A DNA stretch of 32,000 bases from Planctopirus limnophila DSM 3776. GTDB taxonomy: Bacteria; Planctomycetota; Planctomycetia; Planctomycetales; Planctomycetaceae. The DNA lies in the NCBI RefSeq assembly GCF_000092105.1, contig NC_014148.1, forward strand, positions 4,830,001 to 4,862,000, read 5' to 3'. The position numbers were made by a program, and so were the translations under genes. Positions 10,614-18,944 of the stretch are shown here, in pieces. The notes below the pieces were generated by a model. The model did no database searches. It worked only from the letters and a program-made list of their open reading frames with translations, and was not told where the DNA came from. Within the stretch, counting starts at the first letter, position 1, and every line of letters begins with the position of its first letter.

Positions 10614-12170
<1,557 letters not shown>

Positions 12171-12335
12171 GATTCAGTCCTCGGAGGATTGAAGGAGACA
12201 AAATGCAAAAAACAAATACTGGGAAAACTTGCTGGCAATATTTCGATAGCCCGAGATCAACCCGTCAGGTAACTCGCAGTGAGGGATACGAACATCACCA
12301 CAAGGATGCCTGAAGAACTTGAACCTCAGGGAAAT

Positions 12336-13550
12336 TTAGTCTCTGGATTTTTGACGGCTTTTCCAAAAGCTGTAAATCAGCCCATCCAGTCCAAACCAGC
12401 GACCGGTGGGCATGGCAGCAATCGCCAGAAGCGTTAAAGCTTCCATATTGACTTTGTTGACAATGTAATTGTGCTCGATCCCCGGAGCTTCGGGAGTTCC
12501 CGGCCAGGGTGGTGCTGCCAGATAAAACAGCATCAACAGACCGGCACCCCCCACAGCAGCAAACCGGGTTCCCAGACCGATAATCAGCAGGAAACCAAAA
12601 ATCGTCAGGCTCCACATGGTTCGCCAACTGAGAACTCGACCTTCGGTCCAAGGTTGAGGAACAGGCCCCATGGCCAGTTGATCTGAGGAAAGCAGCTTCT
12701 CGGCAGAATCACGCAGTTCCTGTTCAAGAGCCTGAACCGGCCCCACAACACGCCGGCGAAGATCCTGCAATTCACGCCACTGAGTTTCGAGATGATCCCA
12801 TTGGTACTTCGTTTTCGCCTGAGCATGATTGGCTTCGTAGCGTTCAATCTGTGCCTGATAAAGCTCAATGTCGCCAATCCGCTTCTCGATTTCTTTGCCG
12901 TCTTTCTCACGTTGAATGACGCCGACTCGCTCCGGATCGCCCTTCAACAGCACTGCCAGGCGCTCTTTGTAACTTAGCCTCGTTCCCTGATTGTAAAGCG
13001 AATTCACCGCATTCTTGTAAGCCACGGCAGGTGGTGTATCAGCCGCAGAAGCATCCACCAGACTCAAAAGTCGATCACGTTCGGCGGCCAGCAGATGCTG
13101 CTTCCCATCGACAGACAGGATCTTCTTCGCAGGATCGAACTGCGCCAGCCGACCCATTTTCTCCTGCGTAACTCCCGGAGGAAGTGCCTCGAGTTTCGCG
13201 CTGAACTGAGCAGGCCCATTGAGCAGATACATCAGGCGACCGGCTTCAGGAGCATCGTCAGCGATGTTGTAATGTGCCAGAAACCGATTGGCATAGTCGT
13301 CCCACTTGTTCGACATGTAATCGTAGTTGACCCAACGCAAGTCGTTGGGGTCGCCCAGCAGACTCCGGAAGAACCCACGCAAGGGCCCGGTTGCATTCTT
13401 CAGGTAGCCTTCGGCAGACCATGGTTGAGGCGACTTTTGCGTATCAATCTTCCACCAGCCTTCGTAAAGCAGGTGCCAACCGATAAACAATCGCAAAGTG
13501 ACCAGTAGCACACAGGCCAGTTGGGAGATCTTGCGGTCTTCGCCGTTCAC
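12336..13550 (-). CDS. DoxX/DoxD-like membrane protein interrupted by a soluble coiled-coil insert of about 270 aa
   Basis: GTG start with GAGG 7 nt upstream. The N-terminus LRLFIGWHLLYEGWWKI ... AEGYLKNATGPL resembles the first DoxX/DoxD helix and loop. Three further TM helices occur only after about residue 305 (WSLTIFGFLLIIGLGTRFAAVGGAGLLMLFYL ... ALTLLAIAAM). The segment between them is hydrophilic and heptad-rich. Confidence 0.6.
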   Translation of the reverse strand: MNGEDRKISQLACVLLVTLRLFIGWHLLYEGWWKIDTQKSPQPWSAEGYLKNATGPLRGFFRSLLGDPNDLRWVNYDYMSNKWDDYANRFLAHYNIADDAPEAGRLMYLLNGPAQFSAKLEALPPGVTQEKMGRLAQFDPAKKILSVDGKQHLLAAERDRLLSLVDASAADTPPAVAYKNAVNSLYNQGTRLSYKERLAVLLKGDPERVGVIQREKDGKEIEKRIGDIELYQAQIERYEANHAQAKTKYQWDHLETQWRELQDLRRRVVGPVQALEQELRDSAEKLLSSDQLAMGPVPQPWTEGRVLSWRTMWSLTIFGFLLIIGLGTRFAAVGGAGLLMLFYLAAPPWPGTPEAPGIEHNYIVNKVNMEALTLLAIAAMPTGRWFGLDGLIYSFWKSRQKSRD

Positions 13551-13591
13551 TCTCGAACCTCATGACTTCGACTCACTGGAACTGGATCTGC

Positions 13592-13621
13592 CACTGATCA
13601 ATCTCACACTGATCAATCTCA
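13592..13621. repeat. Perfect 15-bp tandem duplication (CACTGATCAATCTCA x2) 42-71 nt upstream of the DoxX-like gene start
   Basis: Read directly: 13592-13606 and 13607-13621 are identical. Each unit contains the palindrome TGATCA. Confidence 0.85.
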
Positions 13622-13795
13622 ATTGAAGCAGAATCACAGCCTGGGCAATCAAAGCCTTTCTCTCGGATGAAAATCTTAGGGTTGCAACAGAATCAGACCG
13701 AACCCACGGCCTGCTCGATTACTCTGACCACTGCGAATCAGTGATCATCATCATCAAACCAGCTTGGGAGCATCCAGAGAACTCAATCCATCAGC

Positions 13796-14884
13796 TCAGA
13801 ATGAGGCGGCAGGTGAGCGGGCAGGGTAAAGAATCTCTGGAGGGACGTTGATGATTGTGGCTTCCGCAGCCGTCTGACGACTGGACTGGGTAAACAACAA
13901 CACACCGACATCTGTTGAATTATCACAGAGAAGTCGAGTCTTTTCGACCCCCAGCACGAAAAAAGCCGTGGAAAGTGCGTCTGCCAGGGCCGCTCGTGCC
14001 GTTAATACGCTGACAGAAAGGACGTTTTCGACAGGCCAGCCCGTGCGAGGGTCCAGAATATGACCATACCGCCGTCCACCGACTCGAAACCCCTGTGCGG
14101 CTGTTCCGCTGGTTCCCAGGGCCTGATTCTTCAATAAAATCGTGCCCCACGAATGCTGCGGCAACAGAGGATCGCGTAATCCGACAGGCCAGCCGCCATG
14201 CCCCGCATGGTCTCCCAGAGCCAGGACACTGCTCTTTCCACCATGCACCAGCCAATGGTCGATCCCACGCGAACTCAAATGCCTCCCGGCACAATCGACC
14301 GCATATCCTTTACCAATCGCACCCAGATTGAGCTCCACACCGGGCTGGCGATATCGGACCGTTTTTGACGCCACATCCAACTGAATCTGGTCCATGCCCG
14401 TCAGTTGCCGTGCAGCTTCAAGTTCGGCTGTACTTGGCAGGCGACCTTCCTTCCGAGCTGTTCTCCAGACGGCAATCAGTGGCCCAGTGGTGGGATCAAA
14501 CGCCCCTTCCGTTTTCGCGACCAGATCCCGGGCTTCGATCAATAAGTCGAACAGTTCACCGCTGACTTCGACAGGCTCAAGCGCTGCCGTTTGATTAATG
14601 ATCGCCAGCTCGGCTTCGGGACGATAGATCGTCATCATCGCTTCGAGCTGATGCACCAGATCCAGTGCTTCGGAAGCGGCCTCCACCTGCAGAGCCGGGC
14701 CATCAGGATTCAGGATCACGTCGAAATGGCAGGCCATGGCTGTGGTTTGCAGCAGCAGGACTGGCCCACGAGTTGGTACCTCTGTAGTTGGCAAGTCGGC
14801 AGATCGAAGTGCCGCTTCAGCAGCAATCTGTTGTGCCAGCCGACCCGTCAGAAAATCACGTCGATCAGCCGAAGGATTCGTCAC
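13796..14884 (-). CDS. apbE: FAD:protein FMN transferase (ApbE family), Tat-type signal
   Basis: ApbE motifs are NLGAIGKGYAVD, ALGTSGTAAQGF and HILDPRTGWP. The longest ORF starts at a TTG at 15049. I prefer the GTG at 14884, which gives MTNPSADRRDFLTGRL (Tat motif near the N-terminus) and 362 aa, a typical ApbE length. The start remains uncertain. Confidence 0.8.
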   Translation of the reverse strand: MTNPSADRRDFLTGRLAQQIAAEAALRSADLPTTEVPTRGPVLLLQTTAMACHFDVILNPDGPALQVEAASEALDLVHQLEAMMTIYRPEAELAIINQTAALEPVEVSGELFDLLIEARDLVAKTEGAFDPTTGPLIAVWRTARKEGRLPSTAELEAARQLTGMDQIQLDVASKTVRYRQPGVELNLGAIGKGYAVDCAGRHLSSRGIDHWLVHGGKSSVLALGDHAGHGGWPVGLRDPLLPQHSWGTILLKNQALGTSGTAAQGFRVGGRRYGHILDPRTGWPVENVLSVSVLTARAALADALSTAFFVLGVEKTRLLCDNSTDVGVLLFTQSSRQTAAEATIINVPPEILYPARSPAASF

Positions 14885-15352
14885 TTCTGTTACCTGCCAA
14901 ACCTTTAATTGTTTTTGAATTATCTTCGGTGAACAGAGCCCAAAGCAACTGAGTCTCTCGGGATTGTCACTGAGAAAAGTGCGGCCAGAGAGGCGATCAA
15001 AATCAAAAATTCGCGATTCCTTCGCTAAAACGGTCTTGCCGTTGTTCAAAACTCAGTAAATAATCCCGACAGTTCGCACAAACGTAGTGCGACGGTAGAC
15101 CGGCTGGAGATGTGATCGGAGGTGACCCCGATCGAATCCGGCGGACGATCTATAAACTGTAGAAAGGAGGTGGTCGTTTGAATTGTCTTAGTTCTAGTCG
15201 CCAGCGAGGTGGCAAATCCTAGTGACAGTCGACGGACTGGCTTAGAGCCACCGTCTCGTAGCGGCCATGTCCTTAGAGAACGTTCTGCGAATTCGATTCT
15301 TCGTGATCCCGAATTCCACTAAGAACACTCGATAGGGTATCGCACGAGCCTC

Positions 15353-15390: not shown

Positions 15391-15702
15391 TGATAGCCCC
15401 GCAATTTTACAGTCCCGCAAATTGAACCTCGCGCATCATCGGGCGACTTCCCCGAAGCACATCAGTTTGCATGAGACACTTAGACATCACAGATCGACGT
15501 CTGCAGTTTTCACAAGCCCTTAGCCTGGCTTCCCATCTTCAGCCTGCATTTCCGAAGAATTTTGCACGGCGTGTCACCTTTCTCACATCTTCCTGATCTC
15601 AATGGTCATGTGGCCTGACTGGCCAATCGAATTCGTGGCAAAGGGTATGAGCTTGCGAGAACTTTCTCTACGTTAAGCTCACCCGGTATTGAGGAAAATC
15701 AC

Positions 15703-16020
15703 ATGCATCGTCGTACCGTCTGGATGTGGGCTGGCGCAGGTTTGATGGGTCTGGTGGTTGGTTGTGGTCAAGCAGCCTCAACCACAAGTTCAGCCCCCGC
15801 AGGAGGAAGTGGTGCTGCCATGGCTCCCATGATGGGAGAGCCGAAGATGAGTGAACCGAAGATGAATGATGGCATGATGGCCGGCGAAAAAATGGCTGGC
15901 GAAAAGATGATGGCAGATCCCAAAATGTCAGATGGTATGATGGCACCAGCCATGAAAAGTGACGATAAGATGAAACCTCCCGCGATGATGGCACCAGATA
16001 TGGCCGGCGAGAAGAAGTAA
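15703..16020 (+). CDS. Methionine-rich lipoprotein (MrpX-like candidate periplasmic oxidant sink)
   Basis: GAGGAAA lies 6 nt upstream of the ATG. It has a signal peptide with a lipobox (LMGLVVGC). There are 18 Met in the last 68 residues, in short repeats (EPKMS/EPKMN, DGMMA x2, AGEKM x2). It sits directly upstream of msrP on the same strand. Confidence 0.75.
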   Translation: MHRRTVWMWAGAGLMGLVVGCGQAASTTSSAPAGGSGAAMAPMMGEPKMSEPKMNDGMMAGEKMAGEKMMADPKMSDGMMAPAMKSDDKMKPPAMMAPDMAGEKK

Positions 16021-16080
16021 GCTTCCGGCTGTCAGCACTGGCCCACATTCGTCTTTTGAAACGTCGAGAGTGAGGTGGGA

Positions 16081-17067
16081 ATGTCCACAGATCCAAAGAT
16101 TTCTGATGCGGAAGTAACACCGCCTGAACTCTATTTCAATCGCCGGCAGATCATGCGGGCAGCCATTGCATTGGGCACTGTCGGTGCCACAGTTGGCATC
16201 TATCGTGCATTCAAACAACCTGCCCAGAAAGAGGCCAACACCGCCGCGATCGAGGGTCTGGTACGTCCTGCTGATACGGATGCCAATCTGGCCAGCCAGG
16301 GGTTCAAAGTGGATGAACCTTTGACCCCCGAGATTGACATTATCAATTACAACAACTTCTACGAGTTCACCACTTCGAAAGAAGGGGTGGCCAGAGCCGC
16401 TGCAAATTTCAAGACTGAGGGCTGGAAAATCGACGTCGGTGGGTTGGTCGATAAGCCCACCACTTTCACCATGGATTCGCTGAAAGCACTCAGCCCACCC
16501 GAAGAACGCATCTATCGCATGCGCTGCGTCGAAGCCTGGTCGATGGTCATTCCCTGGGCCGGCATTCCCTTAGCCCGAATTCTTGAAGCCGTTCAGCCCC
16601 AATCTGCAGCCAAGTATGTGGCGTTCGAAACATTGTTCGATCCTGTCCGCATGCCCGGGCAGGCCTCGCCTGTTCTCGACTGGCCCTATGTCGAAGGTTT
16701 GCGGCTCGACGAAGCCATGCATCCTTTGACTCTGCTCGCAACAGGACTGTATGGCAAAGAATTACCACCCCAGGATGGTGCTCCCGTGCGGCTGGTCGTT
16801 CCCTGGAAGTACGGCTTCAAAGGCATCAAATCGATTGTCAAAATTTCGCTGTTGGCCGACGAACCCCCCACCAGTTGGAATCGGTTCGCACCTCACGAGT
16901 ACGGTTTCTTTGCGAATGTGAATCCGGAAGTCGATCATCCCCGCTGGAGCCAGGCGACTGAACAGCGTATTGGCGAACTGGGGCGTCGCAAAACCCTCAT
17001 GTTCAACGGTTACGAAGAGCAGGTCGCTTCTCTCTATACAGGAATGAATCTGCGAAAATTCTACTGA
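16081..17067 (+). CDS. msrP: Protein-methionine-sulfoxide reductase catalytic subunit MsrP (YedY; molybdopterin enzyme)
   Basis: Near-collinear by eye with E. coli MsrP: Tat motif FNRRQIM, then NNFYEF, ERIYRMRCVEAWSMVIPWAG, KYVAFETL, YVEGLRLDEAMHPLTLL, GAPVRLVVPWKYGFKGIKSIV, VDHPRWSQATE, NGYEEQVASLY. The start is ATG 16081 or GTG 16075. Confidence 0.9.
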   Translation: MSTDPKISDAEVTPPELYFNRRQIMRAAIALGTVGATVGIYRAFKQPAQKEANTAAIEGLVRPADTDANLASQGFKVDEPLTPEIDIINYNNFYEFTTSKEGVARAAANFKTEGWKIDVGGLVDKPTTFTMDSLKALSPPEERIYRMRCVEAWSMVIPWAGIPLARILEAVQPQSAAKYVAFETLFDPVRMPGQASPVLDWPYVEGLRLDEAMHPLTLLATGLYGKELPPQDGAPVRLVVPWKYGFKGIKSIVKISLLADEPPTSWNRFAPHEYGFFANVNPEVDHPRWSQATEQRIGELGRRKTLMFNGYEEQVASLYTGMNLRKFY

Positions 17068-17186
17068 TCCCTGTCCGCCGATAGGGGGCCGCCGCTCAGG
17101 AGCAGCCATCAGGGCAACTTTCCGTTGGCTTCGAAGATGGAATTGAATTGTCCGCGTTAATCCATGCATCTCGGGAAGGCCGCCGC

Positions 17187-18944
17187 GTGAGTGAGATTCA
17201 GTTCTGGAAGCTGCTGCTGATTATCAATGGTCTCATCCCCCTGGCACTTTTGGGCTGGGATGCGTTACAGGGTAAAACCGGTGGCAACGCCATTGGACAG
17301 GCCATCCATACCACAGGCTACGTCTCCCTGCTCTTCATCATGGCGTCCCTCGCTGTGACACCACTTCGAGTTGTCACGGGTTGGACGACCCCGGTCGCCT
17401 TTCGTCGTATTCTCGGGTTGTTTGGCTTCTTCTATGCGGCCATTCACTTCGGAATTTACTTTGGATTTGATCGCGCTTTGAGCCTGTCGAGTACCTTCGA
17501 CGAAATCGCGAAACGCAGGTTCCTACTTGTAGGCATGACCGCACTGATGCTCATGGTCCCCCTGGCTGTCACTTCCACAAACGCCATGATCAATCGACTC
17601 GGCGGCAAACGCTGGAAGCTCTTGCATCGCACAGCCTACATCGTAGGAGCACTGGCCGTCCTCCATTACTTCATGCAGGTGAAAGCCGATATTCGCCAGC
17701 CCCTCGCCTTTGCTGTTGTCCTGGGCGCCTTTCTGCTCATGCGTCTTCCTTTGAAAAAGCTCCTGCAAACTTCCAAGTCTCACTCTCCCGTCCACACCTC
17801 CGTCAAATCACCAGCCACTGCGACAGGTCGGCCCAGGTTCTGGACAGGTGAACTCAAGCTGGCGCGTGTCTTTCACGAAACTTCTCTTGTAAAGACCTTT
17901 CGCTTCGTGGCTCCCGATGGCAACAACCTGCCGTTTGCCTTTGAACCCGGACAGTACCTGACATTGAAAGTACTCATCGACGGAAAGTTCGTCAGTCGCT
18001 CGTACACCATCGCATCATCCCCCAGCCAATCGGGCTATTGCGAAATCTCTGTCAAGCGGGAGGAACATGGCCTCGTCTCGCGGTATCTGCACGAGCACCT
18101 GCAAGAAGGCGATCTTCTCTCAATATCGGCACCAGGTGGAAAGTTCTTCTTCAATGGTCGCCAGGCGAAAAGTGTCGTTTTCATCTCGGGTGGTGTGGGA
18201 ATCACACCTCTCATGTCGATGACTCGTTACCTCACCGATACCTGCTGGCCCGGCGAAATCCACTTTCTCGTTGTCGATCGATCACCCAAAGATTTGATCT
18301 TTTACGACGAATTGCGACATCTGGCCCATCGATTTCCCAATCTTCATGTGGCCGTCACATTGACTCGATCTCCAGAGATGGATGATTGGATGGTGCCGGA
18401 TGGCTGGCGGCGAGGTGAAGGACGGATCAATACCTCGTGGCTGCGCGAATGCCTGCACGATTGGCCCCAGCGCCAGGTCTATCTCTGCGGCCCCGACGCC
18501 ATGATGGATGCCACTCGTGAGCTTCTGACTGAACTTGGAGTCCCTGCCGAGCAGATCTTTACCGAAGCCTTCGTCTCACCAGCTGCACAAAAAGAGGCGA
18601 CTGAGATTCTGCCTGTGGAGTCTCCAGCCAATACCACAGCGACCTCCTCACGCGAACTCACCACGCACTCCGCAACTCCGGGCGAGTTTCAAGCCACCTT
18701 GCAATCGTCCCGGCAAACCATCGAATTGAGTGGCTACAACAATCTGCTCGAAGCGGCTGAAGCCGCGGGACTCGACTGGCCCTACGATTGCCGCTCCGGT
18801 GTTTGTGGCCAGTGCCGTGTGCGACTCATCAGTGGCGAAGTCGTGATGGATGTCCACGAAGCTCTTACGCCACAGGAACGAGCACAAGGCCATATCCTCC
18901 CCTGCCAGGCCCGCGCCTTCAGCCATCTGGTGATTGAGGCCTGA
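17187..18944 (+). CDS. msrQ: MsrQ (ferric-reductase-type heme-b membrane domain) fused to an FAD/NAD(P)H oxidoreductase and a plant-type 2Fe-2S ferredoxin domain
   Basis: The N-terminal 200 aa or so align with E. coli MsrQ, including the His ligand contexts (FYAAIHFGIYF; WKLLHRTAYIVGALAVLHYFMQV, with the two His 13 residues apart). Next come the FNR-type motifs RSYTIAS, VVFISGGVGITPLMSM and YLCGPDAMM. Last is a C-terminal ferredoxin, CRSGVCGQCRVRL...LPCQA. It is one uninterrupted ORF. The longest ORF starts at TTG 17148, and GTG 17187 has GGAAGG 7 nt upstream. Confidence 0.85.
   Translation: MSEIQFWKLLLIINGLIPLALLGWDALQGKTGGNAIGQAIHTTGYVSLLFIMASLAVTPLRVVTGWTTPVAFRRILGLFGFFYAAIHFGIYFGFDRALSLSSTFDEIAKRRFLLVGMTALMLMVPLAVTSTNAMINRLGGKRWKLLHRTAYIVGALAVLHYFMQVKADIRQPLAFAVVLGAFLLMRLPLKKLLQTSKSHSPVHTSVKSPATATGRPRFWTGELKLARVFHETSLVKTFRFVAPDGNNLPFAFEPGQYLTLKVLIDGKFVSRSYTIASSPSQSGYCEISVKREEHGLVSRYLHEHLQEGDLLSISAPGGKFFFNGRQAKSVVFISGGVGITPLMSMTRYLTDTCWPGEIHFLVVDRSPKDLIFYDELRHLAHRFPNLHVAVTLTRSPEMDDWMVPDGWRRGEGRINTSWLRECLHDWPQRQVYLCGPDAMMDATRELLTELGVPAEQIFTEAFVSPAAQKEATEILPVESPANTTATSSRELTTHSATPGEFQATLQSSRQTIELSGYNNLLEAAEAAGLDWPYDCRSGVCGQCRVRLISGEVVMDVHEALTPQERAQGHILPCQARAFSHLVIEA

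Follow-up and report, generated by a model that had tools for sequence, protein, structure and literature searches.

A predicted methionine-rich lipoprotein encoded upstream of msrP in Planctopirus limnophila, a candidate lipid-anchored methionine sink

What would a small exported protein made up largely of methionine (Met) and charged or small residues do beside a periplasmic methionine-sulfoxide reductase? The question is raised by a gene located directly upstream of msrP in a 32,000-nucleotide stretch of the genome of Planctopirus limnophila DSM 3776 (NCBI RefSeq assembly GCF_000092105.1, contig NC_014148.1, positions 4,830,001 to 4,862,000 of the forward strand), hereafter called the window, in whose own numbering coordinates are given; related loci are designated by L numbers and related proteins by P numbers. 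The product of this gene is probably, by analogy with proteobacterial systems, a lipid-anchored variant of the sacrificial methionine sinks MrpX and BcrX, recycled by the MsrPQ system. The initial annotation had already put forward a membrane-anchored counterpart of MrpX, and this reading now draws support from the recurrence of a lipobox and a Met-rich design in linkage with msrP, the function itself being assigned by analogy. The features of the window that bear on it are as follows.

15703..16020, plus strand: Met-rich lipoprotein gene with an ATG start, 105 amino acids (aa), recognised from the open reading frame (ORF) and its translation, from orthologs in L001-L003 and from analogs in nine other planctomycete loci.
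15703..15765, plus strand: predicted type II signal peptide with lipobox LVVGC, by match to a PS51257-type pattern; predicted lipid-attachment residue Cys21.
15691..15695, plus strand: Shine-Dalgarno-like GAGGA, 7 nucleotides (nt) 5' of the ATG, read from the sequence and invariant in L001-L003.
15817..16017, plus strand: Met-rich low-complexity tail (residues 39-105) with 18 Met, pentapeptide phasing, rich in K, D, E, G, P and A, predicted to be disordered.
15841..15914, plus strand: 15-nt tandem repeat units (Tandem Repeats Finder) that encode EPKM[SN] and AGEKM pentapeptides, the site of unit gain or loss in close relatives.
16081..17067, plus strand: msrP, periplasmic molybdopterin methionine-sulfoxide reductase (NCBIfam NF003767, Pfam Oxidored_molyb), with the twin-arginine leader NRRQIM.
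17148..18944, plus strand: fusion of msrQ, the haem-b membrane domain, with domains for FAD binding, NAD binding and 2Fe-2S ferredoxin, 598 aa (Pfam and NCBIfam).

The predicted product of 15703..16020 on the plus strand is MHRRTVWMWAGAGLMGLVVGC followed by GQAASTTSSAPAGGSGAAMAPMMGEPKMSEPKMNDGMMAGEKMAGEKMMADPKMSDGMMAPAMKSDDKMKPPAMMAPDMAGEKK, with a mature part of 84 residues. The N-terminus MHRRTVWMWAGAGLMGLVVGC, with Cys at residue 21, fits the lipobox pattern of the PROSITE PS51257 type, {DERK}(6)-[LIVMFWSTAG](2)-[LIVMFYSTAGCQ]-[AGS]-C, and further PS51257 conditions hold by eye (Arg3 and Arg4 within the first seven residues, Cys between positions 15 and 35), which bears out the signal peptide with lipobox LVVGC described in the initial annotation. 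By inspection only, the RRTVW stretch of the signal peptide is loosely twin-arginine-like. The final 68 residues contain exactly the 18 Met (26%) that had been counted before, and the binomial probability of at least 18 Met in 68 residues, given that Met makes up 2.3% of residues in the long window ORFs, is approximately 1e-14. The composition past Cys21 is M18 A15 G10 K10 P9 S7 D6 E5 T2 Q1 N1; the mature protein is 21.4% Met and 25% charged (K/R/D/E), and the earlier remark that Cys, His and aromatic residues are missing past the lipobox Cys agrees with counts of zero for Cys, His, Phe, Trp and Tyr. A mark of MrpX-type proteins that the window lipoprotein shares is a small, charged mature part of low complexity, with approximately 20% Met and no hydrophobic core. 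The short degenerate repeats that had been quoted (EPKMS, EPKMN, DGMMA twice, AGEKM twice and PAMMAP) were all located, and to them can be added a period-5 phasing of Met, with a score of 26 compared to 11.7 +/- 2.7 in 20,000 shuffles (p = 5e-5).

Downstream of the lipoprotein gene, on the same strand and after a gap of 60 nt, begins msrP, so placed in the initial annotation as well, the product of which matches the NCBIfam MsrP equivalog NF003767 over residues 3-330 with 459.8 bits (cutoff 207). The ATG at 16081 is a more probable start than the listed GTG at 16075, since it matches relatives of 328 aa. The Met-rich gene and msrP are probably co-transcribed; the terminator scan found no terminator-like site between them, the sigma-70 promoter and terminator scan as a whole giving results at chance level and being set aside as uninformative. 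Membership of one unit with msrP and msrQ is a further mark of MrpX-type genes, found at the window locus and kept in relatives. The MsrQ fusion consists of the Pfam domains Ferric_reduct, FAD_binding_6, NAD_binding_1 and Fer2, with a match of NCBIfam MsrQ NF003831 to residues 16-210 at 150 bits. It is presumed to supply electrons to MsrP, and its domain content suggests that it would make a one-polypeptide conduit for electrons from NAD(P)H to the periplasm. The same fusion lies 3' of msrP in nine related loci (L001, L003, L164-L166, L168, L170, L171, L174), while in L169 (5042-6770) and L175 (4987-6737) its parts are encoded by separate genes. The only planctomycete locus with a plain MsrQ (L173) is also without a Met-rich gene. 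The best named homologs of the MsrP protein, with 65-73% identity, are those of Caulifigura, Planctomycetaceae, Rubripirellula and Pirellula staleyi.

Searches with the lipoprotein itself gave little that could be used. No match to Pfam or NCBIfam was obtained for the window protein or for P0001, even at E = 10; a sequence search of 5.8 billion clusters gave two matches, both in near-identical genomes with the same gene order; and an exhaustive phmmer search of 1.84 billion representatives gave four matches with nothing usable, two of them being long unrelated repeat proteins. The sole non-trivial phmmer match, P0141 (176 aa), has a type I signal and an N-terminal region of approximately 60 residues followed by approximately 20 KMAD[GA] pentapeptides, and is another, longer member of the class of proteins with Met pentads. 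Homology being unusable, the comparison was therefore anchored on MsrP by synteny, using 80 genome loci and 80 metagenome loci (samples, not censuses) together with 11 distinct loci from exact look-up of ten planctomycete MsrP homologs, all of which were picked through MsrP alone, blind to their upstream content.

It had been predicted that similarly biased ORFs would stand beside msrP in relatives, and this is what the loci show: a Met-rich ORF lies upstream of msrP, on its strand, in nine of the 13 other planctomycete loci. The distance to msrP is 32-220 nt, that is, directly upstream, in eight loci and 2.3 kb in P. staleyi. No Met-rich ORF is present upstream of msrP in L006, L169 or L173, and L005, with only 448 nt upstream, is not assessable. 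With the lineage of the window counted once, ten of 14 independent planctomycete msrP loci carry the ORF. The nine loci are listed with the identity of their MsrP to that of the window.

L164: MsrP 85% identity; lipobox LVSGC; window-like repeats (ADPK[MV]SDGMMAP common to both).
L165: MsrP 70% identity; lipobox LIVGC; MSKDDKGMM repeats.
L166/L167: MsrP 72% identity; lipobox TVVGC; DGMAKD repeats.
L170: MsrP 71% identity; near-lipobox GLWGC; ten MMAGDK units.
L171: MsrP 69% identity; lipobox LVVGC; MKDG repeats.
L174: MsrP 69% identity; lipobox VVCGC, by eye; DGKM repeats.
L175: MsrP 69% identity; lipobox TLVGC, by eye; MMK[GD][EG]A repeats.
L004 (Mariniblastus): MsrP 68% identity; lipobox VVSGC; MMKDDK repeats.
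L168 (P. staleyi DSM 6068): MsrP 70% identity; lipobox LLAGC; KPMMEE repeats.

The PS51257-type pattern finds a lipobox in eight of the nine planctomycete members that were run through it, with L174 and L175 added by eye, and the lipid-anchored form is by this measure predicted to be the rule in Planctomycetota (almost always anchored). Met makes up 18-23% and charged residues 25-55% of the window protein, its ortholog in L001, seven analogs and the protein of L004; none of them has an aromatic residue or more than one His. The analogs are rich in K, D, E and G, with 26-55% charged residues in the eight that were measured. They accompany MsrP proteins of 67-85% identity and align with each other only at Met1, at the Gly-Cys of the lipobox and at a few Met columns. 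Family matches are lacking for four of the five analogs checked. The expectation that composition rather than sequence would be conserved is borne out in this way; selection appears to act on reading frame, composition and periodicity and not on sequence, which would therefore make the design invisible to homology searches. A uniform six-frame scan of 175 sequences (1.46 Mb) took as a segment any stretch with no fewer than 5 Met per 30 aa in which hydrophilic or small residues made up 90% or more. Of the 22 Met-rich segments so obtained, 21 lie on the strand of msrP and upstream of it, and the other one (L056) is an antisense artefact. Outside Planctomycetota the arrangement is rarer, with approximately five of 160 sampled loci, the planctomycete L004 being among those five; the others are unrelated Met-rich ORFs upstream of msrP in a Verrucomicrobiota metagenome-assembled genome (MAG; L013) and in the metagenome contigs L093 (a 195-aa Met-rich protein), L098 (a lipobox-like protein with many PAM and AGM motifs) and L138. 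In L138 (contig Ga0247837_1003778), a 274-aa segment at 1135-1959, approximately 1 kb upstream of msrP and approximately 242 aa long when counted from MINKLKF as its likely start, carries a type I signal and up to 16 Met per 30 residues, with MMMMKDGKMM repeats in a super-repeat of approximately 65 residues.

Near-identical orthologs with shared synteny are present in L001-L003, and length differences among them comprise whole pentapeptide units: the ORF of L001 is longer by 30 nt (two AGEKM units) and those of L002 and L003 are shorter by 15 nt (one unit). The ratio of nonsynonymous to synonymous substitution was rejected as a test of the ORF, the only alignable relatives (L001-L003) being too close for it to be meaningful. 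These units also bear on the possibility that there is no gene at 15703..16020 at all, and that a chance or decaying ORF in the leader of msrP owes its Met richness to a 15-nt DNA repeat. The absence of a family match, the absence of the exact sequence from the protein collection, a frameshifted version of the ORF in L002 and L003, and the overlap with a 150-aa antisense ORF could all be read in that sense. However, the lipobox and the Met-rich design recur at the same position with unrelated DNA repeats (encoding MMKDDK, MMAGDK, DGMAKD and KPMMEE), the indels are whole codon pentads, an SD-like (Shine-Dalgarno-like) site precedes the ATG, and the Met count has the very small probability given above, so that the absence of a gene is very improbable. 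The antisense ORF (15668..16120, minus strand), which covers the entire Met-rich gene, encodes a product rich in Ser, Leu, Arg, Pro and His; it has no conserved features and was rejected as a gene, having the look of a shadow of the ATG-rich sense strand.

How closely, then, does the lipoprotein resemble the known methionine sinks? MrpX of Azospira suillum PS has 20% Met, 44% charged residues and a signal peptide, and is encoded in a yedY1-yedZ1-mrpX unit that is induced by chlorite and hypochlorite via SigF/NrsF (PMC4436054). Hypochlorite oxidises MrpX and the reduced form is regained in vivo, regeneration by YedY/MsrP having been proposed by the authors and not directly demonstrated (PMC4436054). 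The bcrXQP genes of Brucella melitensis, in which BcrX is an "MXKDX repeat protein", are protective and are induced by hypochlorous acid (HOCl) via an extracytoplasmic function (ECF) sigma / anti-sigma pair (PMC8315932), and C3568 of uropathogenic Escherichia coli (UPEC) is regarded as a homolog of MrpX under two-component system regulation (PMC8550376). MsrP itself is not stereospecific, and its preferred substrates are unfolded, with Met clustered in polar stretches (bioRxiv 10.1101/243626). The likeness to MrpX is that of a small exported protein of approximately 20% Met (21% in the mature window protein) with many charges, thought to be natively unfolded, poorly conserved in sequence, encoded in one unit with msrP and msrQ, and proposed to be a sacrificial, enzymatically regenerated sink for hypochlorite. 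The differences are that MrpX is soluble in the periplasm whereas the window protein has a lipobox in place of a signal for soluble type I export; that the order is msrP-msrQ-mrpX in Azospira, compared to X-msrP-msrQ in the window; that no SigF/NrsF pair or GTAAC-N-CGAA promoter is found upstream of the window ORF; and that the window MsrQ is fused to a FAD/NAD/2Fe-2S reductase and belongs to Planctomycetota rather than Proteobacteria. A search for the SigF/ECF16-type promoter as GTAAC-N14-20-CGAA gave nothing upstream of the ORF and two matches elsewhere in the window, which is the chance level.

With BcrX, as described in publication, the window system shares an X gene that comes first with reductase genes after it, and a pentapeptide phasing of Met that is also present in C3568; BcrX is under the control of an ECF sigma factor, and planctomycete relatives of the window have an ECF sigma gene and a promoter-like motif beside the Met-rich gene. 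C3568 of strain CFT073 has a type I signal (NAQA/AD), MxKDx-like pentads, approximately 17% Met past an assumed signal of 20 residues and 40% charged residues; it contains His and Cys, whereas the window protein has a lipobox and neither residue in its tail. The family TIGR02953, "pentapeptide MXKDX repeat protein" (cutoff 41 bits), resembles the window protein in its period-5 Met repeats with K and D/E between them, its small size and its N-terminal export signal, and differs in the units, which are MxKDx in the family compared to xxKMx, GEKMA and DGMMA in the window; it scores 35 bits with C3568 and 25 bits (E = 1e-5) with the L166 analog, both below the cutoff. A profile built from eleven planctomycete proteins matches 27 proteins, almost all with a lipobox and six of them fused to thioredoxin or AhpC/TSA domains; four of the 27 are named "pentapeptide MXKDX repeat protein" by the Joint Genome Institute (JGI), several of these bearing a lipobox. 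The window protein appears MrpX-like in every feature readable from sequence and context, though it fails the profile hidden Markov model and differs in signal type.

Further evidence comes from the neighbours of the Met-rich gene in relatives, several of which recur. An ECF sigma gene adjoins the module in six lineages (L166/L167, L168, L169, L170, L171 and L175), and in five of these six it is followed by the gene for a Cys-rich protein of approximately 80 aa (CDGC…HxxxCxxC), the sixth, P. staleyi (L168), having a different Cys-containing protein of 111 aa on the strand opposite to the sigma gene. The pairs of ECF sigma gene and small Cys protein gene are located as follows.

L166: 2242-3119.
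L168: 2410-3747.
L169: 3104-3971.
L170: 2423-3298.
L171: 2500-3365.
L175: 2524-3368.

The HxxxCxxC motif and the position of the small Cys-rich proteins suggest that they may be zinc-binding anti-sigma factors; they gave no match to Pfam zf-HC2 at E = 1. The Met-rich gene of L004, L166 and L170 is preceded, within approximately 110 nt, by a promoter-like sequence, GTAAGA-N14/15-GCGTC; in L171 this sequence is approximately 250 nt upstream of the gene, and L165 has a near-variant that ends in TCGTC. The sequence GTAAGA-N14/15-GCGTC is also found 5' of the sigma gene in L169, L170 and L171 and 5' of a divergent AhpC/TSA gene in L170, and the variant of P. staleyi is CTGTAA[CT]-N16-GTGCATCCAAAG. 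Across all loci the motif is not enriched (47 found compared to approximately 65 expected), and it is its position in the planctomycete loci, not its overall frequency, that is striking. The ECF sigma factor, the Cys-rich partner and the motif together look like an uncharacterised oxidant-responsive regulon, which is absent from the window. AhpC/TSA peroxiredoxin genes are recurrent in the loci of relatives; in P. staleyi, the Met-rich ORF (17 Met in 97 aa) adjoins both an AhpC/TSA gene and the ECF sigma gene, and occupies 1369..1662 of L168, which corresponds to approximately 1,566,486-1,566,779 of CP001848. In L013, P0152, P0155, P0160, P0163, P0164 and P0166, a Met-rich tract is joined to a peroxiredoxin or thioredoxin domain. 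The context of neighbours in relatives points to oxidant defence. The fusions take three forms: a signal peptide, a Met-rich tract and a peroxiredoxin (Q/BCP-like; a 33-member cluster); a lipobox, a Met-rich tract and a thioredoxin-like domain; and a thioredoxin or AhpC/TSA domain with a C-terminal Met-rich tail. In L013 (4363-5058, a Candidatus Udaeobacter MAG), the Met-rich tract is fused to a peroxiredoxin.

The same neighbours and the spacing of Met in the tail bear on the alternative raised in the initial annotation, that the protein handles copper. In this explanation, the thioethers of Met would form a sponge or chaperone that binds soft metals, Cu(I) or Ag(I), and MsrP would merely keep the ligand Met reduced. 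Met-only peptides are known to bind Cu(I), as in the Ctr1-type "Mets" motifs, and the tail offers many closely spaced Met, including five MM pairs. In E. coli, msrPQ is reported to be induced by copper stress, and MsrP to hold the Met ligands of CusF in the reduced state (PMC9302797); to that extent, linkage to msrP is therefore compatible with a metal role. However, the description of the tail as "MxxM-type" is not sustained by the spacings, among which MxxxxM dominates with ten occurrences, MxxxM and MM have five each, MxxM has one and MxM none; the tail is without His, Cys or Trp, and neither Pfam nor NCBIfam matches the protein to a copper-protein family. The Met-motif copper proteins (CusF, PcoC/CopC, CueO and CopA with their Met-rich loops, PcoE/SilE and the Ctr1 "Mets" motifs) share with it a periplasmic location and clustered Met, but the window protein matches them in neither fold nor family, lacks His and Trp, has hardly any MxxM or MxM spacing and is not accompanied by copper genes among the neighbours scanned. 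None of the 17 main window ORFs scanned contains a copper-handling Pfam domain, and domains of the HMA, multicopper-oxidase, CusF, CopC and CopD types are lacking both in these and in the called genes of 11 related loci, where the recurrent neighbours are instead msrPQ, the ECF sigma factor and AhpC/TSA peroxiredoxins. Among the fusions found, Met-rich tracts are joined to peroxiredoxin or thioredoxin and never to metal domains. Copper or silver handling is accordingly an unlikely function, and the alternative loses ground to the methionine sink.

A further explanation is that the tail removes a negligible amount of oxidant and acts as an accessory or sensor, either recruiting or retaining MsrP near MsrQ or reporting oxidation of the envelope to a regulator. 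The anchor would put the tail at the membrane surface, as is MsrQ, and it is conserved among the planctomycete members as described above; that the published MrpX-type proteins are soluble (PMC4436054) suggests that location matters in the planctomycete form. A substrate with multiple Met could also hold MsrP through successive catalytic cycles, an idea taken from bioRxiv 10.1101/243626. On the other hand, evolution is free outside the Met pattern and the number of repeats varies even between near-identical genomes, which fits bulk chemistry better than a specific interface, and no membrane sensor is consistently adjacent. The Cys-rich partner of approximately 80 aa has no evident hydrophobic segment by eye, so no contact with the periplasmic tail is expected. 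Such an accessory or sensory role is considered improbable.

For the methionine sink, which remains the preferred reading, several points must be set on the other side of the balance. The lineage of the window does not have the ECF sigma and Cys-rich pair of its relatives, no ECF sigma factor being found among the 17 main window ORFs, and does not have the motif upstream of the ORF: GTAAGA-N15-GCGTC is absent there even when two mismatches are allowed, and oxidant-responsive regulation is therefore unsupported in this lineage. The window protein is 25% charged, compared to 44% for MrpX, and richer in Ala, Gly and Pro, and it has no TIGR02953 match even at E = 10. The look of disorder ascribed to the tail in the initial annotation is consistent with an AlphaFold2 prediction from the single sequence (predicted local distance difference test score, pLDDT, of 56; no secondary structure in the tail), which is weak evidence for the intrinsic disorder that it suggests. 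For low-complexity repeats, homology with MrpX and convergence cannot be told apart. Finally, the metagenomic loci L002 (at approximately 8186) and L003 (at approximately 1901) have a 1-nt deletion in a run of six A (15887-15892 in the window) that splits the ORF into ORFs of 63 and 37 aa. The deletion could be a homopolymer assembly error, real decay or slippage-based switching, and it could mean that the gene is dispensable.

If the gene product is nevertheless a methionine sink, its operation can be outlined from the analogy with MrpX and from the predicted domains. Export and lipidation at Cys21 would leave a disordered poly-Met tail of approximately 84 residues tethered to a membrane on its periplasmic side. 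The thioethers of this tail would react fast with hypochlorite-type and other oxidants to form methionine sulfoxide, so that oxidant would be consumed by the tail before reaching the proteins and lipids of the envelope. The co-transcribed MsrP would reduce the sulfoxides of the tail back to Met with electrons that would arrive via the haem domain of MsrQ, probably directly from NAD(P)H through the fused FAD/2Fe-2S reductase; with this re-reduction, each tail would therefore be reusable many times. What is observed is the ORF with its lipobox, composition and periodicity, its close linkage to msrP-msrQ and the recurrence of the design in divergent relatives; translation, lipidation, disorder and the electron route are inferred, and so, by analogy and context, are the oxidation by HOCl and the re-reduction by MsrP.

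Other features of the window are less closely connected with the methionine sink.

15646..15677, plus strand: possible remnant of an ECF-type promoter, of uncertain status; GTATGAGCTTGCGAG resembles the -35 and spacer of the L171 motif in a comparison by eye.
10614-15049, minus strand: divergent cluster upstream, encoding the flavin transferase ApbE, a protein of 404 aa whose C-terminal domain is DoxX/DoxD, and an oxidoreductase of the GFO/IDH/MocA family.

No promoter is claimed at 15646-15677 because the spacing to a CGT-type -10 is wrong. The GFO/IDH/MocA oxidoreductase carries a twin-arginine-like leader. A link of the cluster to the methionine sink through ApbE was considered and rejected, as neither the Met-rich protein nor MsrP, the MsrQ fusion, the DoxX-like protein or the GFO protein contains a flavinylation motif (D..[ST]G[AS][ST] or [ST]GA[ST]); the ApbE cluster adjoins msrP only in the window's own lineage. 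Farther upstream in the window is a HisKA_3 histidine kinase gene, followed in the syntenic locus L001 by a GerE-type response regulator.

No new principle is implied by these results, which describe a variant of the MrpX/BcrX methionine sink. Studies of sacrificial methionine sinks that work with MsrPQ are known from only three proteobacteria, in each case on soluble peptides. A tentative and somewhat doubtful extension is that planctomycetes, with some other lineages, possess a self-contained cycle at the membrane surface, in which a lipid-anchored carpet of disordered poly-Met tails would be oxidised instead of the components of the envelope and would be regenerated by MsrP with electrons passing from NAD(P)H via the MsrQ fusion rather than from the quinone pool, under the control of a new ECF sigma factor and its HxxxCxxC partner through GTAAGA-N15-GCGTC, with the anchor as the innovation. 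If the reading is true, the lipid anchor would protect the membrane locally, or would keep the protein within an envelope that is leaky or compartmentalised. The locus and its relatives extend the picture of the methionine sink to a form that is widespread in Planctomycetota, mostly lipid-anchored and paired with a reductase-fused MsrQ, and they offer a testable system for the location of the decoy, for the electron feed of MsrQ and for the synteny-based finding of genes that are defined by composition.

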